In this document: positions 11,918 to 40,375 of the stretch, one piece after another
Position numbering within the stretch: position 1 is the first letter of the stretch
Layout of the letters: the number at the start of each line of letters is the position of its first letter
Notes under the pieces: model-generated
Databases searched by the model: none
What the model saw: the letters and a program-made list of their open reading frames with translations, nothing else
Told to the model about the DNA's origin: nothing
From: a phage
Reading direction: 5' to 3' (one strand)
Assembly: GCA_012549035.1 (NCBI GenBank)
Contig: GCA_012549035.1_4805.1
Length of the DNA stretch: 64,000 nt
Program-made: the position numbers and the translations under genes

Positions 11918-12556
11918 TTAACGAGTCAATTGTACAATGGTATAAGTGGAAGACTGGACGCTTGGGCCGGAAAGGGCAATAGCAGTCGGGTCAATCACGA
12001 TACCGCCTGGAATGGCAACCATGCCAGTTGGCAGTGAGCCAGTGTAGGCGATAATTGCACCGATAGGCAAGTTGTTCGGGTTGTTACCGCTGGAAATGCC
12101 TTTAGGTACATAAGCGAGCAGGTCGCCGTAGTTCAGCGTCTGCGGACTGGTGCTTGGGTTGAATACTTCAACTACGAGGCCCGTGCACATATCGTAGAAC
12201 TCGCCTTCGCTATATTGAGGCAGAACCATGCTGGCGCCCAAAGGACCAGTAGAGTTGCCATACAGAGCGTAACGCTTGCTGTTGCCAAGGATGCCATAGT
12301 AATTGGTGCCGCCCAGTTCAACTTCAAAGTCCTGCGCGCCCAAGGTTTTGGTTTGACCAGTACCCATTAAAGATACGTCATCTTTAAAACCAAACACACG
12401 GCTAATGGCGTTTACGTTTGCACCGTCGTTGGCGCTAACGATTCGGCCTGGCTTCCCACGCTGTGGGCCGTCGCGAACGATGTCGCCAGGAAAGCCAGTT
12501 GTATATTGACGGCCTACACTAGTTTGGAAAGTCATGTTTATTCCCCTTTCAACCAA
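11918..12556 (-). CDS. head structural protein (212 aa)
   Basis: Gly-rich ORF between scaffold-like and capsid genes. Confidence 0.55.
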   Translation of the reverse strand: MVERGINMTFQTSVGRQYTTGFPGDIVRDGPQRGKPGRIVSANDGANVNAISRVFGFKDDVSLMGTGQTKTLGAQDFEVELGGTNYYGILGNSKRYALYGNSTGPLGASMVLPQYSEGEFYDMCTGLVVEVFNPSTSPQTLNYGDLLAYVPKGISSGNNPNNLPIGAIIAYTGSLPTGMVAIPGGIVIDPTAIALSGPSVQSSTYTIVQLTR

Positions 12557-13956
12557 GCTTCAAATGCTTCGTCAGTTGCTGCAGAATCCGCAGCGGCCTT
12601 TTGTTTTGCGACTACACGCTGTTTTTGACCGTGTTCAACGCCGCGCAGATAATTATCCACAACGTCAAACTCAGCACCATCAACGCACTTCAAGCCTAAC
12701 TTTTTAGCGCCATATTTCGCTACGGACTTGGAGTCCATAGTTGCATGATCAAAGGCACCAACAACTTTAGACAGGCGCTGGTAGAGGCTATTCTTACGAG
12801 CAGAATCAGCGTAGAAAGCAGCAACTGCTGAATCAGATGCCATTGAGTGTTCCCCTTTTGCTGGACCTGGCGACGCTTTCGCCGCTTTTGTCGGTTTGTC
12901 ATCTTTTTCGACCGAAGCCCCCTTTACGTTGCTGTTTTGCAGGCCGCTAACCACATCTTCAGCTTTGTCGCAAGGTGATACATCTTCAGCCTTGACTTCA
13001 ACTTCTTCGTCTTTGACTTCGGCTTCAACTTCTTCTTCATCACCTACCGCGCCACCTTTCAGTTTTGCAATAAGTGCTTCGATTTGGCTGATCAATTGCG
13101 GAAGTTCGCCGCCAGCGTGAGATTCAGTTTCAACTTCAAACTTCTCTTCACCTTCTGGGGTTTCTTCTGCTTCTGCCTTGACTTCTGGATCAACCATTAC
13201 TTCTTCACGATTTTCGGTTGAGTCCTTCTCTTCTGCTTTCACTTCAACTTCATCCTGATGAGCAGCTTCAGCACTCTCTTCGTTCAGAAATTGTTCGAGC
13301 GCAGGGATCAGTGATTTCAGCTGTTCAACAGCATTATCACGCGCTTTACCTTTTAACGGTTTTGGCATGTCTAAATCCTCGTTGGATGGTGTTACAGTCG
13401 TCAAACAAAGATGGTCAAAGCAACGACCATCCAGCACCCGTGCACCTGGTACTCGACCAACGTCCACGAGAGCAATGTGGTTGCCGCGAAGAGTTGTCTG
13501 CACCACTTCATACGGCTGCCCGTCAAACTCTCCAGACTGTATGATGAATTCACAGTCATAGCCCAAAGACAAGTCAACCTTTCCAGAATCAATGGCCTTC
13601 TTCAGACGACGGCTAAACACTTTAAGGTCGCCGCGCATCCATGGCTTGTCATAATAAACATTGCCAGTCAGAACGCCATCAACTCCATACTCTTCGGGTG
13701 CTGTGTTATCCTCATCACCTTCAAATCCAGAAAGCATTTCGTGATTGTCGATGAAAGGGATATTTTTGAATGAATCTATCGCTTCGGGGTCTTTCACCGC
13801 TGACTCAGGGCGATAGACTTTTACGATGCGATTCGGATCACCATCAAGACCAACTTGACCAGCAGAATAATCAAAAATGCCAAATGACGAAATTGGACAA
13901 CCCATAATCGTCAAGAATCCATTTTTGTCAATTTCGCGTGCCGTTTGCATTCGCAT
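12538..13956 (-). CDS. scaffolding / prohead protease-like protein (472 aa)
   Basis: First gene of head operon; globular N-terminal half followed by a highly acidic E/K/A-rich C-terminal half typical of scaffold proteins. Confidence 0.6.
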   Translation of the reverse strand: MRMQTAREIDKNGFLTIMGCPISSFGIFDYSAGQVGLDGDPNRIVKVYRPESAVKDPEAIDSFKNIPFIDNHEMLSGFEGDEDNTAPEEYGVDGVLTGNVYYDKPWMRGDLKVFSRRLKKAIDSGKVDLSLGYDCEFIIQSGEFDGQPYEVVQTTLRGNHIALVDVGRVPGARVLDGRCFDHLCLTTVTPSNEDLDMPKPLKGKARDNAVEQLKSLIPALEQFLNEESAEAAHQDEVEVKAEEKDSTENREEVMVDPEVKAEAEETPEGEEKFEVETESHAGGELPQLISQIEALIAKLKGGAVGDEEEVEAEVKDEEVEVKAEDVSPCDKAEDVVSGLQNSNVKGASVEKDDKPTKAAKASPGPAKGEHSMASDSAVAAFYADSARKNSLYQRLSKVVGAFDHATMDSKSVAKYGAKKLGLKCVDGAEFDVVDNYLRGVEHGQKQRVVAKQKAAADSAATDEAFEAWLKGE

Positions 13957-14066
13957 CCACCCTCAAATAAGTATTGTGTATTATATCTAATGAAAAAAAC
14001 TTAGGCAAACAATAATTATGGTTTGAATATGTATAACAACCGATATAGCCGCGCCTTTATTAGTGT

Positions 14067-14346
14067 GATACGGATGATACGGATAAAATGAGGCGTATTT
14101 TTATCCGTATCGGTGTATAAGCCGCGCTATCACTGGTGTGCTACGGATGATACGGATGATACGGATACTTTTCATATATAAGAGTTTATAAAAAAAAATA
14201 AAATTAAATTATATATATAATTTTAAATTAATTTATTTGAATTCCTATATAGTACGGCGGCAACGCGTATCATCCGTATCATCCGTAAGATTCTTTTGAA
14301 AACAATAACTTACTTGATACGTATGATACGTCATTATACGTATAAA
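14067..14346. repeat. iteron-rich intergenic region A (9-bp GATGATACG-type units, AT-rich core)
   Basis: TACGGATGA x3 tandem at 14143-14168; GATACGGATGATACGGATA at 14067-14085; inverted copies TATCATCCG x2 at 14265-14293; AT-rich palindromic core 14170-14250. Confidence 0.7.
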
Positions 14347-14373
14347 ACTCGCGGCAATCCTTTGCCGATGAAT

Positions 14374-14511
14374 TCAGTGGATATTAAATAGCACTCCTGC
14401 AACTAAAACGCCAATCAGCATTGAGTCATAAACAGCCCATTTCCAAGAAAGCAAAGAGTTGCAATTAATATTTCGCACTTTAACATAATGTGACTGAATA
14501 ATCTTTTGCAT
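14374..14511 (-). CDS. small hydrophobic protein (45 aa)
   Basis: ATG at 14511 preceded by GAGGA 4 nt upstream; C-terminal hydrophobic stretch LIGVLVAGVLF; below track length cut-off. Confidence 0.35.
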   Translation of the reverse strand: MQKIIQSHYVKVRNINCNSLLSWKWAVYDSMLIGVLVAGVLFNIH

Positions 14512-14521
14512 AACTTCCTCT

Positions 14522-15442
14522 TTAGTTCAGCTTGATTGCGGTGATCTGTCCGTAAACGGTAGATGTCAATGCCTCTGTGCATTGATAGTTTAGATACACG
14601 TTGCCAGGCGCGGCAAGAGTGATTATCTTTGTTGGAATATTGCCGCCGAAACGACCTGCAGCCCGAATGCCAGCTGACATCGTAAATGCATCATCCGTAA
14701 TATCTGAATCGCTTGTTGACAATTTGGCTGTAATTCCGGTATTCGCTTGAATTCCTGCTGTCGCGACAGTCAACTGACTTGCCGTCACAAGCCACTTTCC
14801 TGCAGGAAGGTTTAAGGTCGCCAGATTAACCAAAGTGGTTGGAGGATTGCTAACACTGTTCGTGGCACTCTGGACGGTGCTTTCCGCTGCGTTAAGCACA
14901 CCGGAACCATCAATTGATAGAGTTGTACCGACCTTTACGCCGCCTAAAGTAGATGCTGACGCAATCGGCAATGAGTATTGAGTAACGCTAATTGTACCGT
15001 CACCTGCGACGCTTATTCCGCTTCCTATTTTGACGCCGCCGAGAACAGAAGCCGTTGCCGCTGGTAACGTGTATTGGTTGCCGCTTGATTTGACCACTTT
15101 AACGGCGACAGCATTCTTTGACCCTCCAGACTCCATTCCTATAATCACTGCTTCTCCAAAAGCGATGGTGATTGTAGATGCAGTTAAACCAGTCTGCACG
15201 TCTGTTATGTTCATTTTGGGAACTGAAAGTGTCAGATTCGGCTTGCTGGTAGAATCGCCATCATTACCGATCATAAAGAATTGACCAACTGAATTGTATC
15301 CAGACGCCAATGGCGGACTCAATGGAACAATCAGGTTTTTATCGGATGTAAATTCTGAAACAATCGCCAAACCGTTAGCATATACAGCAGGCAATACTGG
15401 CGTTTGTCCAGATAGAGGAAACGTGCTGATTGGTATCGTCAT
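14522..15442 (-). CDS. fiber-like protein with tandem repeats
   Basis: Tandem repeat blocks TLPAATASVLGGVKIGSGISVAGDGTISV / SLPIASASTLGGVKVGTTLSIDGSGVLNA; track start is GTG at 15511, preferred ATG at 15442 with GAGGT upstream. Confidence 0.6.
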   Translation of the reverse strand: MTIPISTFPLSGQTPVLPAVYANGLAIVSEFTSDKNLIVPLSPPLASGYNSVGQFFMIGNDGDSTSKPNLTLSVPKMNITDVQTGLTASTITIAFGEAVIIGMESGGSKNAVAVKVVKSSGNQYTLPAATASVLGGVKIGSGISVAGDGTISVTQYSLPIASASTLGGVKVGTTLSIDGSGVLNAAESTVQSATNSVSNPPTTLVNLATLNLPAGKWLVTASQLTVATAGIQANTGITAKLSTSDSDITDDAFTMSAGIRAAGRFGGNIPTKIITLAAPGNVYLNYQCTEALTSTVYGQITAIKLN

Positions 15443-15449
15443 AATGACC

Positions 15450-16301
15450 TCAAATGATTGGTATTTTTCTGCACTTGCAGTGTATTGCCCATCCAGGAGG
15501 ACCGATGTCACCCTTTTTGAACTTCAATTCGCCGCCAACTTCCCATAGGCGCTTGTCATCAAGTTTGAATCTCATTCCGTCGACGTGTTCATGAGAGATT
15601 CGCGGCTCCTTTCCTGCTCCTGAGTGCGCCCACTCAAATTCTTCGACTCCATTCTGGCGCATCCTTTCATCGCTTAGAACGCAATACAATTTGCTTGTCT
15701 GGTCTTTAGCGATCAAGTCGACTCTCTTTGCAGAGAAGTGTTTTACGTTTCGCAATGCCGCCTGAATGCCTGACGTGCCTTGCTGGGCTGGGTCGGGAGA
15801 AGTCAGCGAAAGCATGACTGCTTCGTACACTCTGTTGTGAATATCCTCGCCGACCTTAGTCACTAGAGTCGTGTTAAACTTCTCGCTTGTTCTAAGAGTG
15901 TTCTCAACGAATTTGTTATATGTGGCCTTTGGCGCTTCTATGCCTGCGGACTTAAGGCTTGCGAATGTAGCAGAAGTGGCACCCTTTTCGACCGATTTGA
16001 TAAAATCAGCGGCAATCTTCGACCCAACACGTGCAAACGCCTTTGCCCATTTCAGTTGCAGCCGTTTCATAAGGGTCTGGAATGTCGAATCAGCAGAGTC
16101 TTGCGCAAAAAACTTCTGCACCTGCTTCTTGTCAAGCCATTCTGAAATGCCTGCCTGATAGTCATCAATCATCGCATAGCAAAGACCTTTCATCTCACGA
16201 CGATAGGCCATCGCGATTGCGTTGGATGGGATTATCGGACTGCCGCGCCCGACTCTATCGGGTAAGCGGCGTTCACGTTTTTTCGAAGCTTTAAAAGCCA
16301 T
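15450..16301 (-). CDS. head morphogenesis protein (SPP1 gp7 / Mu F-like)
   Basis: Downstream of portal; C-terminal block HEHVDGMRFKLDD...GPPGWAIHCKCR typical of this family; start taken at ATG 16301 (MAFKASKK). Confidence 0.65.
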   Translation of the reverse strand: MAFKASKKRERRLPDRVGRGSPIIPSNAIAMAYRREMKGLCYAMIDDYQAGISEWLDKKQVQKFFAQDSADSTFQTLMKRLQLKWAKAFARVGSKIAADFIKSVEKGATSATFASLKSAGIEAPKATYNKFVENTLRTSEKFNTTLVTKVGEDIHNRVYEAVMLSLTSPDPAQQGTSGIQAALRNVKHFSAKRVDLIAKDQTSKLYCVLSDERMRQNGVEEFEWAHSGAGKEPRISHEHVDGMRFKLDDKRLWEVGGELKFKKGDIGPPGWAIHCKCRKIPII

Positions 16302-16302
16302 A

Positions 16303-18678
16303 TCAACCTTGCTTCGGTGAATTAGTAGGATTGTTGAGTGCTCCATATGCTTGAGAGCAATCACCCTTCAACCACTCCTTGAATGAGTTTACATCCAATT
16401 CGTGGATTGAGTCAAATCCATTCCAACCGTTACCAAATGATGCTTGATAAGCTTCTTTCGCTTCTTCTGCTGAATCGAATCCAAGCATACATTTGTGTTC
16501 ATCAAACTCGCCAGAGTAGTTATCGTTTTGGTTCACGATAAAAACTTTCGGTGACTTCAGATTTGGACCCACAAAGCAGTCGACTTCATCGCCGTCCGCG
16601 CCCTTGGTGCCCTTGATGAATCCGTAGTGGTGCGGCATCTTGACTGCCCATTCACCGTCAAGGCTGTTTCCTCTACGGATGCTGTTGCGAGGATTCTCAA
16701 TCCCAAGAATCAGTCCATGCAACTTCATCTTAGGTAATGATGCTGCGTCCATCTTTCCAACGTTGTGTCGTAAGTTTACGACATTACCTTTGACGCTTGG
16801 AAGGGTAGACGGTTGCACCGACCGTGAATCTTTTTGAGGGTCAAAATCCACATCCTGACCTTCTTTCAGGTAGTAATCCGCAATACCCTCCAGACCTTCT
16901 TTCAACTGCGTTAGGACATCAACCTGATGGCTTGATTCGTCATCGGTATCGTCCATGTTGATTTCAACAGGTGCTCTGTCAGGGTTTTCCGCCAACTCAC
17001 CACGCGCGGCACCCTCTGGCATAATACCTGTTTCGCTATAGAACTGGCCGCCCATCTTAACGACATCAGCTTTCGCCTGTTCAATATCGGCCTTACCTTG
17101 CAAGACTTCACCAGCAGACTTGCCAAGCAATGCCATATTCTCTGGAGACATCCCTGGGGTTTCTTCTGCTGCGTCTTCCGGCAGACGGTTGTAGCCGCTG
17201 TTTTTGTCGTCTTTGATGCGGTCGCGCTCTTCATCAGGAGAAATGACGCCAGCATCAATAAGAGTTTTGCCAGTGTTGGCTCGCTTATCATTGATTTCTG
17301 CAAGTTGAGTAGCAGTAAGTGAGCCAACTGGTTCCCATGCAACCTTAACATCGACATCCACCCCTTCTGATTTGAGAAGGATTTTGTAATGGCGGTCGAG
17401 AATTTTTGTCAGGTCATGCTGCTGGCACGTTTCCAACTCTTCGTGATAGCTGACCATCTCGAATTCACCAGTGGCATTAAAGCCTTTTGGCGAAGTCCCA
17501 AGCAGTTTGGTCGACGGAACTTTTGCGATTGCGGCCACCAGCTGGTACTGGTTCATGATGATGCTGTCGAAGTCTGACAAGTTGATGTCGAACTGGTCCA
17601 TCTCTTCTTTTTGGCCAAGCACTTTGACTGCATAGTTGTCGCGATACTTGATCCACATCATCAGACGTTCTGCAAAAGACCGCTCATTGGCAATCGCCTT
17701 GTCAACGTCGGTCCGCAGCGTGGTTGTACGCTTGGACATCGCCAGCAATGGCGCTTCGTTAGCGGTACGTTCAGCGGCATAGATGCGTTCATAAATCTGC
17801 TGAGTCAGAGGAATGCCGCCGTAAATATAAGTTGGCTTGAGAATATCAGCTGGCTCATCATTGCGCAAGATGATGAGGTGACTGCGATGATAACGTTGTC
17901 CGCTGATCACCCAGTATTCTGGATCATAGAAGTGCTGTGATGCAGGGTCTGCGGTATTTTCAGACGTCAAAAATGGCATCATCCAATAAGGGTCAACCTG
18001 AATGATTCCCTTGTAAGACCCCTTTGTCACACCATCAATGTTAAAAGGCTTGCTGTAATATTCTGGGTCATCGCTACGCACATCAAATATGATGACGCGG
18101 ATACCAAAAATATTTTTGAATCGTTCGGCTTCAACTAAGTGCTCTTTGATATTAAATTCTTTATCAATTTGCTTTAGGCGTTCGCTTGCCTGCACTGACA
18201 ATTCTGACTCAGAACTGGATTTGACTTCCCAACCTTTACGGACCGCATCGCGGCCTACCATGGAACACGCCTTGTTCACCAGCCAATGCTGTGCGATGAT
18301 GGCACAAGCTTGATAGCCGATGAATGACTGTGACAAATACCAGTTTTGAAGTTGAATAGGTACTGTGTATGGGTTGACCTGCCCTTCTGAACTGATGTTC
18401 TTCAAGGCATTATCCATAACTTTTTTGGATACTGTTGCGGAATCGACTGAACGACCTTTTATGATAGCAACACCGTCGCCATTAATATCAGGCTCATATA
18501 AAGGGAAGTCATCAACCGTTTTAAAGGTCGGTCGATTGCTTTCAGTCTTTTCCCAGCGTTGACCGCTGCCGCGCCTTTCAAGGCGTTCAAACGGTGCCAA
18601 TGGGTCGCCTGGCGGCATCTCCGCTGGTTCGGCTTCTGGTTGCGTCTTCTCCCAGAGTTTTATGCCAAGAATTTTCAT
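16303..18678 (-). CDS. portal protein with C-terminal inorganic pyrophosphatase-like domain
   Basis: Position between terminase and head morphogenesis genes; C-terminal ~130 aa carry YGFIKGTKGADGDEVDCFV and AEEAKEAYQASF, resembling family I PPase signature; track start is TTG 18711, ATG 18678 has an AGGTGG RBS. Confidence 0.7.
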   Translation of the reverse strand: MKILGIKLWEKTQPEAEPAEMPPGDPLAPFERLERRGSGQRWEKTESNRPTFKTVDDFPLYEPDINGDGVAIIKGRSVDSATVSKKVMDNALKNISSEGQVNPYTVPIQLQNWYLSQSFIGYQACAIIAQHWLVNKACSMVGRDAVRKGWEVKSSSESELSVQASERLKQIDKEFNIKEHLVEAERFKNIFGIRVIIFDVRSDDPEYYSKPFNIDGVTKGSYKGIIQVDPYWMMPFLTSENTADPASQHFYDPEYWVISGQRYHRSHLIILRNDEPADILKPTYIYGGIPLTQQIYERIYAAERTANEAPLLAMSKRTTTLRTDVDKAIANERSFAERLMMWIKYRDNYAVKVLGQKEEMDQFDINLSDFDSIIMNQYQLVAAIAKVPSTKLLGTSPKGFNATGEFEMVSYHEELETCQQHDLTKILDRHYKILLKSEGVDVDVKVAWEPVGSLTATQLAEINDKRANTGKTLIDAGVISPDEERDRIKDDKNSGYNRLPEDAAEETPGMSPENMALLGKSAGEVLQGKADIEQAKADVVKMGGQFYSETGIMPEGAARGELAENPDRAPVEINMDDTDDESSHQVDVLTQLKEGLEGIADYYLKEGQDVDFDPQKDSRSVQPSTLPSVKGNVVNLRHNVGKMDAASLPKMKLHGLILGIENPRNSIRRGNSLDGEWAVKMPHHYGFIKGTKGADGDEVDCFVGPNLKSPKVFIVNQNDNYSGEFDEHKCMLGFDSAEEAKEAYQASFGNGWNGFDSIHELDVNSFKEWLKGDCSQAYGALNNPTNSPKQG

Positions 18679-18840
18679 TGTTAACGCCACCTGACAGTGA
18701 AAGGGAATCAATCTATATTATAAATATTCATGTGTTTGTAAGCAAATGATATGTATGGTGATCATAAATAGTTCATAAAATATTTTGCTTTTGTATCATT
18801 TTGAGTTATATTTTAGTTAACCAAACGAAAGGAGATTGAA

Positions 18841-19496: not shown

Positions 19497-20957
19497 TTAA
19501 AGGTTAGAGAAGAAGCCGGATGCTGCAACAATTGGTTTCATCAATGCCATGATTGCGGCGTCCGCTTTGTTAGGCGATTTAACTCCACGCTTTGCCATAT
19601 CCTTTTTCGATTCAACTTTGAACTTACCAAGAACAGACGTGTCTTTGCGCGGCGCTGACATCTCAAAAAGAAACGTCTCAATTTCTTCCGCAGACCAAGC
19701 AGGAATCCCAAGTTCTGGAATGCCGTCTGTGTCGATGGAAATCAACTCATCGGTCGGATATACGGCTTGCCCTGTCGCATACTCATATGTCTTTCTGAAT
19801 CGTTCGGCAATCTCAGTCCATTTTTGCGCTTTTATGTTTGCGAAATGGTCTTTATTGAGTATTTCAACGTGTGGTAACTCAAGGAAAACGTCATCAGGAT
19901 CATCAACAGCACCTTGCGCGTTGAACGCATTAAATTCGATTCTTGGGAATGTTGGATTTTCATGTATTGCATACTCATTGAGCTCATCAAATTTTGAACC
20001 AGCAAATGCACCGACACCGATGGCGTCATAGGTAATTGACGCGCCGAATGTCAATGCGTCTTTCCAAACTCCGCTTGCGGACTTAAGCAATTCATCTTCC
20101 AGACCTTCCCATGTCTTGATGCCACGTAATACGTTGCCTGTGACGAATGCAGTGGCGTTAAGGTCGTCGCCATCGTCCGCTACGTCAAAGCCTATACGGT
20201 TAGACCCTGACAAACTCCATCCCAGCGTAGGGTGCTTGTGGAGGTTAAGCGCAGCCTTAACGAATGCGCGGTTGATTACAGATTTGTCGCCGCCAGTCTT
20301 CGGCACGCCGCCATAAACGTGCTCTGCCTTTTTCGGGTCACGCTCGTACATGCCTGCAATAACGTCCAGCATTGTTTGCGACAAAAATGGATTGTCTTGC
20401 CAGTTTATCTTTTTAACAATGGCATTCTTCGGCGGTCGCATAACAAAGTTTTGGTAGACGAAATCGGCCTCTTCATCAGGGTTAAAGATGATCCATATTT
20501 CGGACCCTTCTTTACGGATTGTCGGCTCAATAATGTCCCACTGTTCTTCAGTAAGCGCGTGCGCTTCTTCCAGCCAAAGGACGTCAACACCTTCTGTTGA
20601 TTTAATTTCATCAACGTTACGTGCGATACCGTAAAATAGAAATTCAGATTTAGTTCTTTTATGTTCAATAGAGTTCTTTAATAAATTGAACTCATCTTTG
20701 AAATCAGAAATCTCTATTTTGTCTTTTAATAGAGTATATACAGATTCAGAAATCTTGTTCTGGAATTGTCGAACGCAAAGGAATTTTAATTTGAAGTTTG
20801 CCGCCAAATAAATAGCAAAACCAGCGGCATCGTGCGATTTGGAAGATGCACGACCGCCGTATATTACTTTGTATCGCGCTTTTGTCTTCCAGACTTCTTT
20901 TAAAGCAGGATTCAACTGGTACATGACTTTCCAATTATGTGTTAATATTTTATTCAT
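19497..20957 (-). CDS. terL: terminase large subunit
   Basis: 486 aa; N-terminal ATPase block KVIYGGRASSKSHDAAGF (Walker A-like) and overall large-terminase architecture. Confidence 0.85.
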   Translation of the reverse strand: MNKILTHNWKVMYQLNPALKEVWKTKARYKVIYGGRASSKSHDAAGFAIYLAANFKLKFLCVRQFQNKISESVYTLLKDKIEISDFKDEFNLLKNSIEHKRTKSEFLFYGIARNVDEIKSTEGVDVLWLEEAHALTEEQWDIIEPTIRKEGSEIWIIFNPDEEADFVYQNFVMRPPKNAIVKKINWQDNPFLSQTMLDVIAGMYERDPKKAEHVYGGVPKTGGDKSVINRAFVKAALNLHKHPTLGWSLSGSNRIGFDVADDGDDLNATAFVTGNVLRGIKTWEGLEDELLKSASGVWKDALTFGASITYDAIGVGAFAGSKFDELNEYAIHENPTFPRIEFNAFNAQGAVDDPDDVFLELPHVEILNKDHFANIKAQKWTEIAERFRKTYEYATGQAVYPTDELISIDTDGIPELGIPAWSAEEIETFLFEMSAPRKDTSVLGKFKVESKKDMAKRGVKSPNKADAAIMALMKPIVAASGFFSNL

Positions 20958-26778: not shown

Positions 26779-26995
26779 CCTGCCGCGCAGGAGTGTACTG
26801 CAAAATTCCTGTGGGTACAAAATAGTACGGTACTGTCTAGGGCTTTTTCTTTGAAAAGTTAGTGGACCAAATGTGTCGTATTTTGATTAGTGTACCGCAA
26901 ATTTCATCAAGTACCAAAACGCACCAAAAGACCCATGCCATAAAAACCACACGAACGCAATAATCAATCGCCGTTACAGTTTCCAGCGTTACAAT

Positions 26996-27056
26996 TCGAA
27001 AGCGAATGATTCGACGCATAATAATATGAAGCACAATGATTCGAAAGCGAATGATT
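26996..27056. repeat. direct repeat ATTCGAAAGCGAATGATT x2
   Basis: Two copies about 44 bp apart inside the 600-bp non-coding gap. Confidence 0.6.
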
Positions 27057-27373
27057 GTGTGTAGGATAATATCGGTGGGGATTATTCGAGATGCATGTAA
27101 TTTCGCATGCGTACTATTTTCGGGCGAAGGGTCGGCATATTCCTCGTTTTAGTTCGGAACGAAGGGAAAGTTTTGCGCCTTTATAAAACAACGACTTACG
27201 CGACCCGCCCTAACGGTCCGATATAGGTGTCTATATAAAACAAGGACTTACTCGATGTTCTCCATTTAACGTAATACCTGTTATGCGAACTAAGGCGCAT
27301 CTCGATGAAGATTATGCGACGAAGAAGGGAAGGATAAAGGAGTTTTTTGCGGAGAAGCGCATCGAGATAGGGA

Positions 27374-27401
27374 CGAAGAAAAGCCGCGACTAAGCGCGGC
27401 C
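27374..27401 (-). terminator. intrinsic terminator (minus strand)
   Basis: On minus strand GCCGCG-cttagt-CGCGGC followed by TTTTCTTCG, 26 nt after stop of 27427..27636. Confidence 0.55.
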
Positions 27402-27426
27402 TATTAGTAACGGTGGGTGATTATAA

Positions 27427-27636
27427 TTAAAGGAATAATCCGGCGCGTTTAATTTGCCCAAGGACGTTATCGCGACGGCGACGCATAACCGCGTATTTAA
27501 CTTCTTCTTCGTATCCCCAGCCGCCGATGGATAACATCGCGTTCATATTATCGCATAATTCCTTAAGCTCGCGAAACATATCGATTACGGCGGTGCGATG
27601 GGCGCGCGCGTTAAGAGAGTTATTCATATTAGTCAT
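27427..27636 (-). CDS. hypothetical protein (69 aa)
   Basis: RBS AAGGAG; second gene of a two-gene minus-strand operon; CpG-rich codon usage. Confidence 0.55.
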   Translation of the reverse strand: MTNMNNSLNARAHRTAVIDMFRELKELCDNMNAMLSIGGWGYEEEVKYAVMRRRRDNVLGQIKRAGLFL

Positions 27637-27646
27637 TTTCTTCTCC

Positions 27647-27937
27647 TTAAAGGCTTACGATTTTAAAGTAAGTTACTTCGCCGCCGAGTTGCGGTACAGC
27701 GATATATTCGCCGCCGATTTCGGTGATCGTATAAACGAATCCGTTAATCGTTACGCGGTAGGATACGATGTCCTCGTCGCGATACTTGTAAAGGTCGAGG
27801 AAGTTGATCGGCTCATAAATAGACTCGATAATCGCGTCGACGTTAGAGAGATAAACGCTCTCTAAGGTTTCGCCAAATACGTTAGAGTTTTCGGAAGTTT
27901 CGACGCGAGCGGCGCGGATAGCGGATAAAGTAATCAT
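27647..27937 (-). CDS. hypothetical protein (96 aa)
   Basis: RBS AGGAG 6 nt upstream of ATG; preceded by promoter cassette and leader hairpin. Confidence 0.6.
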   Translation of the reverse strand: MITLSAIRAARVETSENSNVFGETLESVYLSNVDAIIESIYEPINFLDLYKYRDEDIVSYRVTINGFVYTITEIGGEYIAVPQLGGEVTYFKIVSL

Positions 27938-27961
27938 AATATTCTCCTAGTTAGTCGGGAG

Positions 27962-27982
27962 GGTAGCGACCTATTCGCTACC
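27962..27982 (-). promoter_or_regulatory. conserved 5'-UTR hairpin (cassette copy 1)
   Basis: On minus strand GGTAGCGA-atagg-TCGCTACC flanked by GGGA...TCCC; covaries with copy at 28524..28544. Confidence 0.45.
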
Positions 27983-28004
27983 TCATCCCCTCTCGATATA
28001 AAAC

Positions 28005-28033
28005 ATTATAGCCTTAGTGTACGAATAAGTAAA
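28005..28033 (-). promoter_or_regulatory. promoter cassette copy 1 (TTTACT-N17-TATAAT)
   Basis: Minus-strand GCTTTACTTATTCGTACACTAAGGCTATAATGTTTTATATCGAGAGGGG; near-identical to the 28473 and 28403 copies. Confidence 0.5.
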
Positions 28034-28043
28034 GCACTTTTCG

Positions 28044-28346
28044 TTATTTTGCGATAAAATATTTGTAAGCCTTATCGCCTTCTACGTCGATATACTCGAC
28101 GATAATTAATGCTTCGCCGCGCGGCGTAACCGTCTCGATAAGGGTAACGGCTTCGTCGTCGGTCTTCGCGAAGCGGATGGCGCTACGTTCGGCGTACTTG
28201 ATATCGTCGAAGGAAAGACCGACGAAGGCGACCGCGCGGACCTTAATGGCGCTAGATTCTAGTTCGGCGTTAACGGCGGCGATAAGAGAGCGAACGGTTA
28301 AACGGTCTTCGTCGTAAGTAAGGATGGAAGAGATTAAAGTGGTCAT
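28044..28346 (-). CDS. hypothetical protein (100 aa)
   Basis: ATG at 28346 with GGGAG-TTTTATT-ATG arrangement identical to neighbouring genes; track N-terminal TTG extension rejected. Confidence 0.55.
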   Translation of the reverse strand: MTTLISSILTYDEDRLTVRSLIAAVNAELESSAIKVRAVAFVGLSFDDIKYAERSAIRFAKTDDEAVTLIETVTPRGEALIIVEYIDVEGDKAYKYFIAK

Positions 28347-28402
28347 AATAAAACTCCCGATGCTAGTGGAAGGAAGGGCCATCGCCCGTCTCGATATAAA
28401 CA

Positions 28403-28430
28403 AGTATACGTGAGTGTACGAAGAAGTAAA
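28403..28430 (-). promoter_or_regulatory. promoter cassette copy 3 (TTTACT-N16-TATACT)
   Basis: Minus-strand CTTTACTTCTTCGTACACTCACGTATACTTGTTTATATCGAGACGGG. Confidence 0.45.
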
Positions 28431-28472
28431 GAAAAAGATAAATAATTTATCTCATTTTTATCGAAAAAGTGC

Positions 28473-28500
28473 TTTACTTTTTTCTACACTATATTATAAT
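28473..28500 (+). promoter_or_regulatory. promoter cassette copy 2 (TTTACT-N16-TATAAT)
   Basis: GCTTTACTTTTTTCTACACTATATTATAATGTACTCATATCGGGACGGG upstream of gene 28570. Confidence 0.5.
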
Positions 28501-28523
28501 GTACTCATATCGGGACGGGATGA

Positions 28524-28544
28524 GTTGACGAATAGGTCGTTAAC
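28524..28544 (+). promoter_or_regulatory. conserved 5'-UTR hairpin (cassette copy 2)
   Basis: GTTGACGA-atagg-TCGTTAAC with compensatory changes relative to the 27962 copy; followed by CTCCC-AAACT-AGGAG-ATG. Confidence 0.45.
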
Positions 28545-28569
28545 ACTGCTCCCAAACTAGGAGTTTATT

Positions 28570-29208
28570 ATGGCCAGTTTGAATCGTTTCTCCACCAGCG
28601 GCGACGTAATCGCAACCAAGACAGCCGACCTCGTTGCATTCTATAACGAAAATTCAGGCTCAAAGCCGATTAAAAAATTCGCGGACCGCCGGACCGCCGA
28701 GACTCGCGTAATCGCGTTAATCGAGTCCTTAAACGCGCTCGATGAGCCGTCCAACGAATCGCCCATCCCAGACGTGAAGGCGCGTGAGGAAGTGTCCAGC
28801 GATGTAAAAACGCATAAGGCGCGTGCGGTCGTTAAAAAGGCTGAGCCGACCCAGGAAGAACTCGACGCGATGAGTGATGAAGAGTATGAAGCCTTCGTTA
28901 AGAGCAGCCTTAATAGCGCTCCGGTTGGCGCTCCGGTTGGCGCGGATAAAATTGCCAGCCCTTCCCATCGCCGTTCGAATAGCGAAGGTATTGCAAAAAG
29001 TTGGGATAACAAGGAAGTGGCGCAAAAGCGTCTCACCCGTAACGGCGTTATGGTCGAGGGTGTAGGCGAGTTCAAATCGGTCCGCGTAGCGTTCGCCGCG
29101 CTGGGATTACCGGATAGCAAGCACATTCGCTTCCGCATGAAGCTTAAAGAAGCTGGACGCTTGAACTTCGAGTTCGGCAACAAGTCCTACACCTTCCAGA
29201 TTATCTAA
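28570..29208 (+). CDS. hypothetical protein (212 aa)
   Basis: RBS AGGAG; CpG-rich codon usage; Ala/Pro-rich linker APVGAPVGA; terminator directly downstream. Confidence 0.65.
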   Translation: MASLNRFSTSGDVIATKTADLVAFYNENSGSKPIKKFADRRTAETRVIALIESLNALDEPSNESPIPDVKAREEVSSDVKTHKARAVVKKAEPTQEELDAMSDEEYEAFVKSSLNSAPVGAPVGADKIASPSHRRSNSEGIAKSWDNKEVAQKRLTRNGVMVEGVGEFKSVRVAFAALGLPDSKHIRFRMKLKEAGRLNFEFGNKSYTFQII

Positions 29209-29215
29209 TCGAATG

Positions 29216-29237
29216 GCGGCCCTTCGGGGTCGCTTTT
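29216..29237 (+). terminator. intrinsic terminator
   Basis: GCGGCCC-ttcg-GGGTCGC followed by TTTT; mirror image of the stem at 26752. Confidence 0.6.
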
Positions 29238-29258
29238 CATAGTGCAAATTGGTGGCTT

Positions 29259-29522
29259 ATGAATACGCTTATTCTCATCGCTACGTTGTCCATCGGAAGT
29301 GGTCGCACCTTATCCCTTTATGATCATAGTGCAAATTGCGCTTACCCAACGCGCGTTGCGGCGATAGTTAATAGTGCAAATCGAATGCTATTCGAGACTT
29401 GTTGGCGGGTCGATAACGAGAAAGGGCGCATCGTCTTAGGTTATAGTGCAAATCTGCTGGTGGAGTCGTTCGACTGGACGGCGGAAGGTCGTAAATTGTT
29501 ACGTAAAGTGACTAAAAGATGA
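29259..29522 (+). CDS. possible small protein (87 aa) overlapping repeat array
   Basis: ORF with island-type codon usage; three in-frame motif copies each encoding SAN; may be non-coding. Confidence 0.35.
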   Translation: MNTLILIATLSIGSGRTLSLYDHSANCAYPTRVAAIVNSANRMLFETCWRVDNEKGRIVLGYSANLLVESFDWTAEGRKLLRKVTKR

Positions 29523-29583
29523 CTTATAATAATACACTTTCTAACGCGTTTATGGCTGCAGCCTTCCCCGTCGTATTACCGAT

Positions 29584-29624
29584 GGCCCTAGAAGTGGAGA
29601 AAATGTGTTCTAGGGCCGTTTTAT
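29584..29624 (+). terminator. terminator-like inverted repeat
   Basis: GGCCCTAGAA-N14-TTCTAGGGCC followed by GTTTTAT. Confidence 0.45.
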
Positions 29625-29636
29625 AGTGCAAATTGG

Positions 29637-30110
29637 CTAGTGGCGGGAGAATTGCTCACCCTCTTTGGCCGCCTCTCCAAAATCCTTGTAGAAATCGTCC
29701 ATGGAACGGCCCATTTTACTATTGCCATTCTCATCAATCATCGTGATGCCGTAGATGATATTCAGTTCACGAATGGCATTAAGCTTGGCTGATGCCGCGA
29801 CTTCTGGATCACGCACAAGCTTCACTAAATTGTGAATGGAACTCTTTACACTCCACAATTCCTTCAATGGCATCTCTTCCATACGCTTTTTGTAGCGCAT
29901 CTTGTAGTACGGATTGCGTTGCGTGCAGAGGATTCGCTGGCCAGTGTAGTTATCGGTCGCAACCTCCATGCCAAATACTAGTGCAAAAGCTGCGCGCATG
30001 TCATGGCCCTGAATAACAAGGTCAATGAACTCATCGAATAATGCCTGATTATGCTCTGCAAATCGCGGGTCTTCAAAGTCTTCAGGCATTGCTACATAAT
30101 CTTGACTCAT
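29637..30110 (-). CDS. hypothetical protein (157 aa), possible small terminase-like DNA-binding protein
   Basis: ATG at 30110 lies inside a motif copy; track TTG extension to 30305 rejected; weak resemblance to small-terminase N-terminal helix pattern, identity uncertain. Confidence 0.55.
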   Translation of the reverse strand: MSQDYVAMPEDFEDPRFAEHNQALFDEFIDLVIQGHDMRAAFALVFGMEVATDNYTGQRILCTQRNPYYKMRYKKRMEEMPLKELWSVKSSIHNLVKLVRDPEVAASAKLNAIRELNIIYGITMIDENGNSKMGRSMDDFYKDFGEAAKEGEQFSRH

Positions 30111-30338
30111 AGTGCAAATCCCATAGTGCAAATTAATAGTGTGAATTATACAATGATTGAACATTATATTCAAGTGCAGATTGATGTTCAAATTGGCTGT
30201 AAACGTACATAAATCATAGTGCTGAATGAATATCGGACCGTGGTGCGTGGTGTACTGTTTGATACGTATAAAAGAAATCCATCCCTTTCGCCGCTTGTTA
30301 TGCAAATCAATGACTTAGCCGCTGCTGGCTGGTTGAAG

Positions 30339-30612
30339 CGTATCATGACGTATCATCCGTATTGCCGCAAGTCTTTGTTTTTACTTATATCTTACGGATA
30401 ATACGTTAAATATATAAATTAACATAAGTATGAGGATGTAGAAAAAAATTAATTTAAATTAATTCAAAATGGAGTTAATTAATTTTTGAAATAATTCTGG
30501 TTACAATAAGGAAAAATGGCGTATCATCCGTATCATCCGTAAGATTCAGTGTACAAATCCAGGCGCGGCGCACCCTAGCGCCATGATACGGATAAAAACC
30601 TATCCGTAAGAG
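30339..30612. repeat. iteron-rich intergenic region B
   Basis: CGTATCAT(G/C) tandem units at 30339-30364 and 30519-30547; 29-bp segment GCGTATCATCCGTATCATCCGTAAGATTC identical to 14265-14293; AT-rich palindromes at 30410-30490; AATCCAGGCGCGGCGC x2. Confidence 0.7.
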
Positions 30613-30840
30613 TGTACGCTTCAAGCAAAGAATCCAGGCGCGGCGCGGCTTTCGCCACCACACACCACGGTTCACTCTCCAAAATCCGCACACTAAATTC
30701 CAAAATCCAATGCTCATACTCCAAAAATAAATCAAAATTTCCATTTTATTTATTATTTTCATCCACAATATCCTAAATTCTATCCGTATCAACCATGCCT
30801 CAACCCACCACTATTCACGCCACTCACTTCAAAATTTCCA

Positions 30841-30873
30841 TCGAAAACAACAAAAGGTCGCATAAAGCGACCC
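30841..30873 (-). terminator. intrinsic terminator ending the early operon
   Basis: On minus strand GGTCGC-tttat-GCGACC followed by TTTTGTTGTTTT, about 50 nt after stop of 30925..31464. Confidence 0.6.
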
Positions 30874-38057: not shown

Positions 38058-38705
38058 TTATCCTGTGGCCTGCATATTGCGTACATACTTCTGCTCTAAT
38101 GAATAGATGAAGTCGGCGACAGTCAATCCCTTCGTGTGCCATTCATACATGGTGAAGCCTGTATTCAGGAAATAGCCGCGCACCTTGTCCATCGCTTCAG
38201 CTTCCTCCATTGAAGCCATCAGCGCGGCGACGTTGTCATAAGAAGGCACAAATCCCTTCTTGCGTAGCGCATTGCGCAAATCTTTAGTTCTGAAGCCAAT
38301 CTTGCAAGGGTCATCGCGGCCCGTGGATGATGCAACCTTTGGAAGAGCAAGGAACTCTTTGAGGAACATTGCAATGTTCAAGTCGCCTGCATCATCAAGC
38401 TTCTGGATTCGGTTGCGACCGCGACCCTTGAATTCACTCGCACGAGGGTGAGCGCCAAAACAGTGCGCCCCTTCCAGTTTAGGGTCAATGATCATCACAT
38501 CTTTCCCAATGCGCAGCTCTACGTAGTAAAGATAAGACTCATCGACAAGCTTTGTGCGCTTGCAAGTGATTGAGTCCTTATCATAACCAAAGCCGCGCAA
38601 CACGGTTGAGATCATTCGGTTCATTTCTTCGCCGTGAACGTCACTTTCTTTGTTCAGTTCACCAAGATGTTGAAAGAATTTAGCGATGTTGATTGCTTTA
38701 TTCAT
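38058..38705 (-). CDS. hypothetical protein (215 aa)
   Basis: 1-nt overlap with helicase gene stop. Confidence 0.55.
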   Translation of the reverse strand: MNKAINIAKFFQHLGELNKESDVHGEEMNRMISTVLRGFGYDKDSITCKRTKLVDESYLYYVELRIGKDVMIIDPKLEGAHCFGAHPRASEFKGRGRNRIQKLDDAGDLNIAMFLKEFLALPKVASSTGRDDPCKIGFRTKDLRNALRKKGFVPSYDNVAALMASMEEAEAMDKVRGYFLNTGFTMYEWHTKGLTVADFIYSLEQKYVRNMQATG

Positions 38706-40375
38706 CAGAATTCATCCTTATCTCTTCCCAAAGAACGTTTACGCTCAATAACCTTCTTCAAGAATTCAATATCTTCAGGGTCAGACTCATCGCGGATAAG
38801 ATACGCTAAGATGGTCATCAAATCAGAAATGTATTCTCCTGCTTCATTCTTAATCAGCGGCGTAAAGTACCCGCGCTGGTTGCGATAGGTTGCAGGCTCA
38901 AAACCAAGCTTCGACATGTGCGGCGCAAGGGTACGAGAGAAAGGCGACTTGCCACACTTCGCTCTGAATCCCATAGCAATAGCGCCACTGGTGATGTGCC
39001 AGCGTCCGCTGTGATGTCGGTCATAAGGCGCGGTGATGACGACTTCAACAAGGTCGTTGTCGACCATCTCATCACGGATAACGCCGCGCGCACGTTCCAT
39101 TTCGTTCTTGCTGAACTCAGTAAGCATGCGAGATGTTTCACCAACAAACGCGTTATAGCCTGCTTCGCCGTGCTTCTCCATCCACGCAGCGCACTCAGCC
39201 ATAAGCTGCCAAACGTCTTCTTTCAAAGTGGAAAGGTCGGCTTGGAAGTCCTTAGACCAGTTCGGTTGCCCGTCCTTGTCAGCGAGTTGGCCAACAAAGA
39301 TAGGGTACACACGACGGTTGCCCGTGTCGTCACGCTGCATGCCTGCGTATTCGTTGCCGTCCATGATCGCAATCCACTGGCGTGGTTTAACCTGCGTATC
39401 TTCAAATTTGAAGTCCAGGTCATCTTCCGTCTTAGTCAGGAATGCTTTCATGTTTTCGATGTCGGCCTTTTTAAAGCCTGTCATCTCGCCAACGTTCGCG
39501 ATAATTGAGCGACCCGTGATAGCTCGCAAGAACGGGTTGAAGTTTTGCGCGGCTAAGTTCAACGGAATCGGTGTTGCGTGGCGGTCGTTCATAATAGCTT
39601 CGCAAAGCAGCTTGCTAAAATAACTCTTCCCTGCGTTCTGGCCGCCGATGAGCGCAATGGAGATTGGCGCTTGACAGCCAGGGTTGGTCAGGCGGTTGTA
39701 GAGCGATAGCCAAAAATACACACCGATTTGTCGGTTTAACTCTGTATCGAACGGTCGGAATAGCTCGATAAGGTATTTCTCGATGCGCGCAGTACCGTCC
39801 CATTCAGGCAGCTTCTTGTAGAAGAAGTCCATCAGGTCGTCGCGCTGATAACGCATGGCCCATTCCTTATAGGATTGAGCGACCTGACGTGAGTTTGGGT
39901 TGGACAACCCTGCTGCGTCGACAGCGGCAACTATCTCTGTGACTTCCAAGGTACGGTCAGTGAATGTTTCGCCGCGATGGTCGACTAAGCGCCCACGAAA
40001 AGTATCTTTGTGAGGGAATGGAACAACGCCACTTCCCTTATCAAACAACGCGTCGAACACCGCATAACGGTTCATGTCACTCGTCCGGTCTGCCTGTAGA
40101 ACGAAGTCATCTTTAGTCGGCTTGTAGTGAGGGAACTTGATTACCTGAAGTGAGGCGAGCAAGCGTGCTCTTTCAACCAAGTCTTCTTCACCGTAGCATT
40201 CCATGCGCTCTGAATCTTTTTCAACGGCTTTATGTTGAAGGCTGATTTTAGCTCTGGTGCCTTGCTGCTCTGCTGCCTGCATTTCTTCCGAAACACCTGC
40301 ATCTTGAATTTCGTCAAAGATTGCACCAAATTCATCACCTGTATCCTCTGGAAGATTGTCATTATTAATTGACAT
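38705..40375 (-). CDS. SF3-type NTPase / helicase (VirE / D5-like primase-associated)
   Basis: 556 aa; Walker A IALIGGQNAGKS and downstream architecture typical of phage/plasmid primase C-terminal helicase domains. Confidence 0.7.
   Translation of the reverse strand: MSINNDNLPEDTGDEFGAIFDEIQDAGVSEEMQAAEQQGTRAKISLQHKAVEKDSERMECYGEEDLVERARLLASLQVIKFPHYKPTKDDFVLQADRTSDMNRYAVFDALFDKGSGVVPFPHKDTFRGRLVDHRGETFTDRTLEVTEIVAAVDAAGLSNPNSRQVAQSYKEWAMRYQRDDLMDFFYKKLPEWDGTARIEKYLIELFRPFDTELNRQIGVYFWLSLYNRLTNPGCQAPISIALIGGQNAGKSYFSKLLCEAIMNDRHATPIPLNLAAQNFNPFLRAITGRSIIANVGEMTGFKKADIENMKAFLTKTEDDLDFKFEDTQVKPRQWIAIMDGNEYAGMQRDDTGNRRVYPIFVGQLADKDGQPNWSKDFQADLSTLKEDVWQLMAECAAWMEKHGEAGYNAFVGETSRMLTEFSKNEMERARGVIRDEMVDNDLVEVVITAPYDRHHSGRWHITSGAIAMGFRAKCGKSPFSRTLAPHMSKLGFEPATYRNQRGYFTPLIKNEAGEYISDLMTILAYLIRDESDPEDIEFLKKVIERKRSLGRDKDEF

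Follow-up and report, generated by a model that had tools for sequence, protein, structure and literature searches.

Two related iteron elements of about 300 bp in a Wifcevirus phage: a candidate packaging cut site at the genome end and its internal twin in the head module

A stretch of 64,000 nucleotides of phage DNA (the window; NCBI GenBank assembly GCA_012549035.1, contig GCA_012549035.1_4805.1) was found to carry two related iteron-rich regions, region A (14047-14346) inside the head module and region B (30339-30650) upstream of the gene for the small terminase (TerS). The two are read here as copies of a single cis-acting element of about 300 bp, acting at the level of the DNA, in which B is a pac-type packaging cut site, A is its internal twin and TerS is the likely reader. 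This reading as a whole is held with middling confidence. Taken separately, B is very probably the packaging cut site, and we consider it likely, with good confidence, that A is a functional paralog recognized by the protein that also reads B. On its sequence A can be called a paralog of the pac site.

The window was assigned to Wifcevirus, a group of PB1-like Escherichia coli myophages. Region A with its flanks (13900-14560) matched 29 phage records at 94.6-99.4% identity, all from Wifcevirus-group E. coli/Shigella myophages (WFC, WFH, ECML-117, FEC19, Mansfield, Bas98-101 and others). Wifcevirus phages are distant relatives of the Pseudomonas Pbunavirus (PB1-like) phages (PMC11990801).

The initial annotation had proposed a replication origin at region A, with a packaging recognition site as an alternative. 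Its anatomy stood, with iterons in two orientations, an AT-rich core and two sites. The packaging alternative is supported for B, since the physical genome end lies in the B core and the pac position of Pbunavirus phages lies at the equivalent site; an origin gained no direct support.

Sequence likeness of regions A and B

Regions A and B hold the only two clusters of TACGGAT(G/A)A in the window. All of the 9-bp units first described in region A were recovered at their positions, and the 29-mer GCGTATCATCCGTATCATCCGTAAGATTC is present exactly at both 14265-14293 and 30519-30547; by our estimate, about 1e-8 exact pairs of this length would arise by chance in 64 kb. Two circumstances named in advance as fatal to the observation did not apply. 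The repeat word is not common in the window: ATACGGAT was counted 11 times, where 1.4 occurrences were expected, and all but one stray copy belong to A (six) or B (four). None of 100 shuffles reached this count, and 15 of the 22 occurrences of TACGGAT are in A or B. The pair is not an assembly artefact of one repeat either, since A and B have distinct flanks in 29 independent phage records. The two cores are the most AT-rich 100-bp stretches of the window, that of A at 87% and then that of B at 85%, against a mean of 53.9%.

The likeness had been described as a shared 29-bp segment. That identity is exact, but the likeness spans about 300 bp. Inverted local alignment of A 14047-14340 with B 30339-30645 covered approximately 295 bp with a score of 100, and direct local alignment covered approximately 145 bp with a score of 81; shuffled sequences scored 20 ± 3. 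Inverted k-mer matches chained collinearly from 14047 to 14358 in A against 30650 down to 30345 in B. When B was compared with the whole window, A was the only significant match (E ~1e-16 in either orientation).

A common plan was recognized in both copies (Table 1). It opens with an outer module, in which GC boxes surround an iteron palindrome; two or three 9-bp iterons in tandem then make up one inner arm, and beyond the AT-rich core of about 100 bp come a second inner arm, inverted, and lastly the outer degenerate iterons. Each inner arm is a perfect inverted repeat of the other, which accounts for the 29-bp direct identity; inner arm 1 of A forms a 22-nt perfect inverted repeat with 14266-14287 and also with 30520-30541. 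The outer module of A matches B 30650-30585 collinearly in inverted orientation. The outer degenerate iterons of A, with units reading GATACGTAT, GATACGTCA and TTATACGTA within 14316-14341, are 92% complementary to 30339-30362. The palindromic character claimed for the AT-rich core of A was confirmed by an 81% palindrome at 14191-14238 inside it. A strict inversion of A relative to B was considered and rejected as a general description. It is true of the window strain when the outer modules are included; other Wifcevirus strains score nearly equally in both orientations, which indicates that the element is close to two-fold symmetric.

In the five Wifcevirus strains compared, every TACGGAT unit of A is unchanged and constant in position. 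In FEC19 and ECML-117 the first degenerate iteron of A is a perfect GATACGGAT, and A carries TATAAAGTATCGCGGCAAC, which is nearer to its own B (TATAAAGTATAGCGGCGAC) than the A of the window is. This shift of A towards its own B suggests that the copies still exchange sequence.

Genome end in region B

The left genome end lies between 30470 and 30471, within the AT-rich core of B, where the plus strand reads ...CAAAAT/GGAGTTAATT... (the slash marks the end). Six public Wifcevirus records start or end at this position. Among them, the Mansfield and WFC records both begin at window position 30470 in the minus-strand reading, Ro157lw starts 359 bp before terS, which is the same site, and the ECO71P1 record ends there. 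The sequence AAAATGGAGTTAATT at the cut is invariant among seven strains. In the same seven strains the iterons, GC boxes and cut context of B persist as conserved islands in a divergent flank, and the unique-side flank is unalignable. The terS gene starts 360 bp from the cut, inside the genome end, and the corresponding spacing is 356-616 bp in the phages Kyle, MTx and Ab27. B is therefore both a fixed virion end, as judged from the records of relatives, and a neighbour of the small terminase gene, as a pac-type site would be.

The left end is at 30470 in all records, and the right end is at 26927 in four of five (WFH, Ro157lw, SP13 and Mansfield) and at 26846 in WFC. From the four concordant records the direct terminal repeat was placed at 26927-30470, so that both of its boundaries are defined by sequence, as for T7-type ends. 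A direct terminal repeat had been predicted for Mansfield by PhageTerm (PMC6753283), and the WFC record holds both copies of a repeat of ~3.7 kb (PMC6563267). A right end set by a headful measured from pac was considered on account of the resemblance of the large terminase (TerL) to headful-type enzymes and of the 81-bp difference between WFC and Mansfield; it was rejected, four records ending at 26927. No TACGGAT iterons are present at 26846-27072, so the signal for the right-end cut must be of another kind than that on the left.

A 34-bp direct repeat with the palindrome ATTCGAAAGCGAAT was recorded at 26994-27027 and 27039-27072, 70-145 bp inside the right boundary.

Occurrence of the pair in related phages

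For comparison between genomes, the name junction is used for the region upstream of terS, and head gap for the one that precedes the head protease gene. The junction element was anchored experimentally in the Pbunavirus phage JG024. In the report by Ipoutcha et al. (PMC10913387), 36 of 161 long nanopore reads start at 59,376 ± 5, and an XbaI band of ~15 kb matches the predicted pac fragment, with one pac position and one pac fragment. Position 59,376 was found to be the same base as nucleotide 1 of Pseudomonas phage Ab27; it lies in the core, with GGTAATTT arms on both sides, 616 bp upstream from the terS gene. The Pbunavirus end is backed by read-end data from two laboratories, and these data identify the junction element as the packaging start site in headful-packaging relatives. 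In Wifcevirus, Kylevirus and Myosmarvirus, the terminal repeat has its left boundary at this same junction element.

Earlier work had touched both places in Pbunavirus phages. A pac site was predicted in SCUT-S1 (Guo et al., PMC6521218), and in the JG024 head-gap core a sigma-70 promoter was predicted and unexplained AT-rich boxes were noted (PMC3008698). In the available portions of the Pbunavirus pac literature, which do not include the 2009 PB1 paper, a coordinate was given, and no account was found of iterons beside it, of the ~300-bp unit or of a twin in the head module.

Junction and head gap of the same genome were aligned in direct orientation. Scores of 141, 153, 159 and 100 were obtained for Pantoea phage Kyle, Serratia phage MTx, Pseudomonas phage Ab27 and Burkholderia phage BcepF1, respectively, with shuffles at ~19-24 in the four phages. 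Between the four genera tested, all scores were at noise level (≤38). The pair was also present in all 14 IMG/VR contigs that carry both terS and the protease gene (scores 72-144; shuffle maximum 34), two of which represent metagenomic lineages without an isolate. An exact 16-mer scan of IMG/VR returned mostly chance matches outside Wifcevirus.

Seven lineages were distinguished in this way, each with one shared, lineage-specific repeat word: ATCCGTA/CGTATCA (Wifcevirus), AATAACC (Kyle), TATCCGAT, CAAATTAC (Pbunavirus), CCGCAAC, ACTTTTCG (MTx), TAACTAA (BcepF1). The TerS proteins of the seven are only 30-44% identical, and terS adjoins the junction copy in every lineage examined. In Kyle, MTx and Ab27 the record end falls 128-140 bp into a shared segment of ~290 bp, and in all four genera iterons, read from the sequence, lie tens of bp to either side of the record end. 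The two copies co-evolve within a genome while the word differs between lineages, which points to a phage-encoded, fast-evolving protein that reads both. A host factor would be unlikely, since the enterobacterial hosts share DNA-binding proteins.

The junction flanks are strand-asymmetric in all four genera. On both sides, the strand running 5' to 3' away from the cut is rich in C+A and poor in G (window 30650-30850; loci L038 180-330, L040 110-300, L041 900-1060, L043 300-600, L044 1000-1160), and no open reading frame (ORF) explains this.

Region A and genome ends

No start or end of any of the 29 Wifcevirus records falls at A. The A core also lacks the GGAG that is invariant at the cut of B; a gap in the alignment stands opposite GGAG/CTCC, in five of five strains. 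The possibility was weighed that A is a second active packaging start, with the genomes of a minority of virions starting in the head module. Every lineage keeps the complete arm-and-core geometry, and the head-gap copy of Kyle retains the context of the cut site, as such a role would lead one to expect. The record ends and the missing GGAG in Wifcevirus, the single terminal repeat in PhageTerm analyses, and the one pac position and one pac fragment seen in JG024 by long reads and restriction digest make it very improbable.

A could also be a functionless, decaying relic of a duplication or translocation of the terS-pac segment, kept similar to B by occasional gene conversion. The signs of sequence exchange between A and B would suit this account. 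It was judged barely plausible: A is 95-99.5% identical across Wifcevirus strains and B only ~88%, the pair is kept in seven lineages in which TerS has diverged as described above, and the genomes are compact (a coding density of 93% was reported for Mansfield; PMC6753283).

Proposed mechanism

In the mechanism favoured here, terminase would cut the core of B at 30470/30471 and so generate the left end of the direct terminal repeat. The iterons some 50-65 bp to either side of the cut would be recognition sites that position the TerL nuclease. Their reader is predicted to be a phage-encoded, lineage-specific protein, most probably TerS. Three points make TerS the best candidate: terS adjoins the site in every lineage, small terminases are the family known to read pac and cos sites, and the cut is central between the arms in four genera. 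Judged from their sequences, the terminase genes of the window fit a pac-type system (Table 1); one of the TerL matches, PDB 4IFE, is the large terminase of the headful-packaging phage Sf6. A would bind the same protein as B and, given the missing GGAG in Wifcevirus, the record ends and the single JG024 pac fragment, would not become a mature genome end. Its role may be that of an additional platform on which terminase is loaded or synapsis takes place, or of a site beside the head operon that responds to TerS.

Several observations weigh against this mechanism. The end positions were drawn from records of relatives and not from reads of the window phage. For the Pbunavirus phage E217, a review describes TerS, whose structure is solved, as a decamer and reports no appreciable DNA binding by it in vitro, the DNA used being left unnamed (PMC9611059). 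The head-gap copy of Kyle keeps a nearly identical cut-site context, AATAAATTGACTACAAAAAAATAGAGTT as compared with GATAAATTC/ACTTAAAAAAAATACAGTG at the junction. A second repeat family, ATTTGCACTAT, with seven copies around terS, could be the real target of TerS. Finally, iterons flanking an AT-rich core fit replication origins equally well, and in three of five genera (MTx, Ab27 and BcepF1) the junction copy has a helicase or primase gene immediately upstream, which is the usual layout of an origin and its initiator.

The word ATAGTGCAAAT was found in seven exact copies at 29239-30133, on the plus strand only and nowhere else in the window (1.8 expected with one mismatch allowed). At two of them the word runs over the start codon of terS, reading ATTTGCACTATG in phage orientation. 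The WFC and Mansfield repeats also keep the family, and the Kyle repeat has TTGCACTACA three times. This family is separate from the TACGGAT iterons; it could be read by TerS in their place or serve in early regulation.

A wider proposal is put forward tentatively, and we regard it as unlikely. The PB1-like supergroup might use a two-site packaging signal, in which TerS rings join the pac element and its twin and this synapsis licenses the cut; alternatively, one module might be origin and pac site together. If the first were true, synapsis would be a built-in gauge of the state of the concatemer or of head-gene activity, and a sequence-defined version of the 'pac synapsis' of T4. If the second were true, a 300-bp module would couple the initiation of DNA synthesis to the formation of the terminal repeat.

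Recognition of viral DNA by the small terminase is a long-standing open problem. Candidate targets are now defined in the form of lineage-specific iteron arms on both sides of a cut mapped to the nucleotide, and a conserved second copy has been revealed beside the head operon, where it can be deleted or swapped. Uses may be found in the setting of genome start coordinates, the design of synthetic or rebooted genomes, the assessment of transduction risk and the construction of packaging-signal plasmids.

Replication and regulatory alternatives

A and B could be replication origins, or the two parts of one origin, at which a phage initiator would attach to the iterons and open the core; the VapE-like helicase, together with the RepB-like primase, might be that initiator. 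The packaging cut would then happen to lie in the origin at the boundary of the terminal repeat, or be coupled to it, and such coupling could, for instance, prime duplication of the repeat. Inverted iteron sets do flank the two most AT-rich 100-bp stretches of the window. Iterons with an AT-rich core are common to pac sites and origins, so this feature does not discriminate between them. The window encodes a VapE-like helicase (38705-40375, minus strand; PF05272, E 1.6e-28; closest solved relative PDB 7PDS) and a RepB-type primase (41687-42769, minus strand; PF16793, a family named after a plasmid primase). Orientation also seems unimportant, A aligning to B about equally both ways in Wifcevirus and only directly in the other genera. 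Paired iteron sites kilobases apart occur in SPP1 (oriL/oriR) and P4 (ori/crr), and the origin of Staphylococcus aureus pathogenicity islands (SaPI) consists of iterons around an AT-rich region by rep. For SCUT-S1, the authors themselves remarked that the AT-rich region of the predicted pac site 'could be a replication origin' (PMC6521218).

Other observations speak against initiation at these sites. DnaA boxes are not enriched in the window (13 against 14.3 expected) and form no cluster at A. There is no GC-skew inflection at A, and at B the cumulative skew has a local maximum, not a minimum, which coincides with a change of gene strand; GC skew in phages follows the transcribed strand. In the Pbunavirus phage Banzai the reported GC-skew minima, at 42,280 and 52,360, are at neither element, the elements having been placed by conversion from the terS position in that record. 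The helicase gene is ~8 kb from B in Wifcevirus, whereas terS is adjacent in every lineage examined, and a central cut between iteron arms in four genera would be a coincidence. Origin function of the pair was accordingly considered somewhat unlikely.

A decision between TerS and the helicase as reader was also attempted on gene adjacency and abandoned, both genes being adjacent in some lineages. A helicase or primase gene is not among the genes beside the Kyle junction, and none is ever beside the head-gap copy. The replication module of the window pairs a plasmid-type primase with a VapE-type helicase, which bears on the question of an origin.

The elements could, alternatively, be upstream regulatory regions, where a phage protein, possibly TerS, would act on the iterons to switch sigma-70-type promoters and so co-regulate terS and the head operon. 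A and B are 40-350 bp upstream of sigma-70-like promoters with the -10 sequence TATAAT, and the same kind of promoter was read by eye before the protease gene in Kyle, Ab27, MTx (weak -35) and BcepF1. The sigma-70 promoter predicted earlier in the JG024 head-gap core and the position ahead of the head operon in all lineages agree with such a role. It was nonetheless judged distinctly unlikely. Just two sites were found in 64 kb (the window being without some 4.5 kb of the genome), a small number for a late regulator, and the predicted promoters, including that at 13980-14008, lie outside the segment shared by A and B. At the left end of the infecting genome, the upstream arm of B is physically severed from the terS promoter, and a genome end within the core would be left unexplained.

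Gene setting and other features

Genes near region A were named from the annotation of Bas100 and from Pfam, and all are on the minus strand (Table 1). Two statements of the initial annotation were revised here. The gap around region A, given as 560 bp, is truly non-coding over 417 bp, the rest being an ORF of 45 codons. The downstream gene, called a scaffold gene, is annotated in relatives as a head maturation protease, with DUF2213 as its only Pfam match. A terminator-like hairpin at 14352-14367 closes the portal-to-head-fiber transcription unit before region A. A, like B, is placed between a terminator and a sigma-70-like promoter. Both would thus lie in pockets with little predicted transcription, which would suit the assembly of a DNA-protein complex. 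No match at gathering score was obtained with Rfam covariance models across the whole window.

Table 1. Coordinates of the elements, genes and signals described in the window
Feature	Position	Strand	Description
Head maturation protease	12538-13956	-	Annotation of relatives; Pfam DUF2213 only
Major head protein	Downstream of head protease gene	-	
Non-coding head gap	13957-14373		417 bp
Sigma-70-like promoter	13980-14008	-	TTGCCT-17-TATAAT; for the head protease/major head protein operon
Outer module of A	14047-14127		Two AGCCGCGC boxes, 14047-14054 and 14120-14127
Iteron pair GATACGGATGATACGGATA	14067-14085		Inverted partner TTTTTATCCGTATC at 14098-14111; both between the AGCCGCGC boxes
TACGGATGA	Starts 14069, 14142, 14151		
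Inner arm 1 of A	14142-14166	+	Three tandem 9-bp iterons, TACGGATGA TACGGATGA TACGGAT
AT-rich core of A	14168-14264		83.5% AT
Inner arm 2 of A	14265-14293		Iterons on minus strand, CGTATCATC CGTATCATC CGTA
Inverted TATCATCCG	Starts 14268, 14277		
Outer degenerate iterons of A	14315-14341	+	TGATACGTA TGATACGTC ATTATACGTA
Terminator-like hairpin	14352-14367	-	Just past the 45-aa ORF, ahead of region A
45-aa ORF	14374-14511	-	Annotated in relatives; directly upstream of region A
Head-fiber-like protein	14522-15511	-	Bas100 annotation/Pfam
Head morphogenesis protein	Between portal and head-fiber-like gene	-	Bas100 annotation/Pfam
Portal	16303-18711	-	Bas100 annotation/Pfam
Large terminase (TerL)	19497-20957	-	Terminase_3; E 2.7e-64 to PDB 4IFE 'Gene 2 protein'; E 2.6e-84 to PDB 8DKR 'Large terminase protein'
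Direct terminal repeat	26927-30470	-	3,544 bp in this strain; left genome end 30470
Small terminase (TerS)	29637-30110	-	E 9e-33 to PDB 7UXE 'Small terminase', ten chains; Mansfield annotation
Two sigma-70-like promoters before terS	30191-30145		Predicted
Terminal-repeat-side arm of B	30339-30405		CGTATCATGACGTATCATCCGTAT (30339-30362) and TACGGATAATACG (30393-30405); conserved in seven Wifcevirus strains
AT-rich core of B	30406-30518		83.2% AT; contains the physical left genome end
Unique-sequence-side arm of B	30519-30650		29-bp block 30519-30547 and outer module
Outer module of B			CCAGGCGCGGCGC boxes 30559-30571 and 30634-30650 around palindrome GATACGGATAAAAACCTATCCGTA 30585-30608
Terminator beside region B	30873-30855		Predicted

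In the portal protein (802 aa), residues 660-782 form a C-terminal InPase domain (PF18823, E 3.7e-46), an unusual fusion. The C-terminal half of the product of the ORF at 14374-14511 is hydrophobic, and tiny ORFs are found at the same position in Kyle, MTx, Ab27 and BcepF1.

Further repeats were recorded within and beyond the terminal repeat. A 27-nt inverted repeat (28015-28041/28465-28491; 89% complementary; TAGTGTACGAATAAGTAAAGCACTTTT) brackets 423 bp inside the terminal repeat, and AGTGTAC words related to it are present at about 26793, 26890, 30549 and 30610. A 35-nt direct repeat (34268-34302/35529-35563; 91% identical; AAAAGGCAAGCATCTAGCTCACCTTTTTGA) has copies 1.26 kb apart in the early/middle gene block and resembles a terminator-type hairpin used more than once.

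Six copies of the E. coli Chi octamer, GCTGGTGG, were counted against 1.4 expected (17535, 28592, 29456, 40983, 42352 and 63067), with no cluster at A in the scan of the window. The copy at 29456 points to the genome end at 30470 and is the only one that is both near the end and correctly oriented. The left ends of Kyle and MTx have Chi in the equivalent orientation, read as CCACCAGC (locus L038 at ~254 and ~297; L040 at ~178). Such copies might shield the ends against RecBCD.

Comparison with known systems

The pac site of SPP1 is composed of pacL, pacC and pacR, and that of P1 of hexamer repeats around the cut. Both resemble the present element in having short recognition boxes on either side of a central cleavage region, beside the small terminase gene. 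The large terminase here is likewise of a headful-type family, and the Pbunavirus site starts a headful packaging series. Unlike those sites, the present core is a 100-bp stretch of 83% AT and the iterons are tandem 9-bp units in both orientations. The cut is the fixed left end of an exact terminal repeat of ~3.5-3.8 kb in Wifcevirus, Kylevirus and Myosmarvirus, and not the start of a permuted series, and a full second copy is present inside the head module. The putative pac of Pbunavirus (JG024 59,376; SCUT-S1) is the positionally equivalent junction element, at the same 616 bp upstream of terS and with the end in a central position.

In lambda, cos comprises cosQ, cosN and cosB, with R sites for gpNu1. 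As in the window, repeated small-terminase sites are found by the nicking site and the small terminase gene. Here, in contrast, cohesive ends are not reported, the cut has binding sites on either side, and a second copy is present.

Origins of the type of SPP1 oriL/oriR, P4 ori/crr and the SaPI origin share with the present pair short iterons around an AT-rich core. The paired iteron origins are also like it in consisting of two related sites kilobases apart, one of them among late genes, and a VapE-like helicase and a primase are phage-encoded. They differ in that one copy here holds the packaging cut, and in that adjacency to terS is conserved while adjacency to the helicase is not.

The pac-like sequences of T4 are intragenic and ~24 bp long, and T4 is not known to have a unique pac cut. 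As here, two related terminase-recognition sequences occupy separate places in the genome; the copies described above are, by contrast, non-coding elements of 300 bp, one of them with a nucleotide-precise end. For the T4 sequences in genes 16 and 19, a 'twin ring pac synapsis' model, in which small-terminase rings join the sites before cutting, is outlined in PMC9611059.

By analogy, the closest precedents for two related sites would be these gene 16/19 sequences of T4 and the paired origins of SPP1 (oriL/oriR) and P4 (ori/crr). What sets the present element apart from SPP1 and P1 pac and from lambda cosB is, above all, its conserved full-length internal twin.

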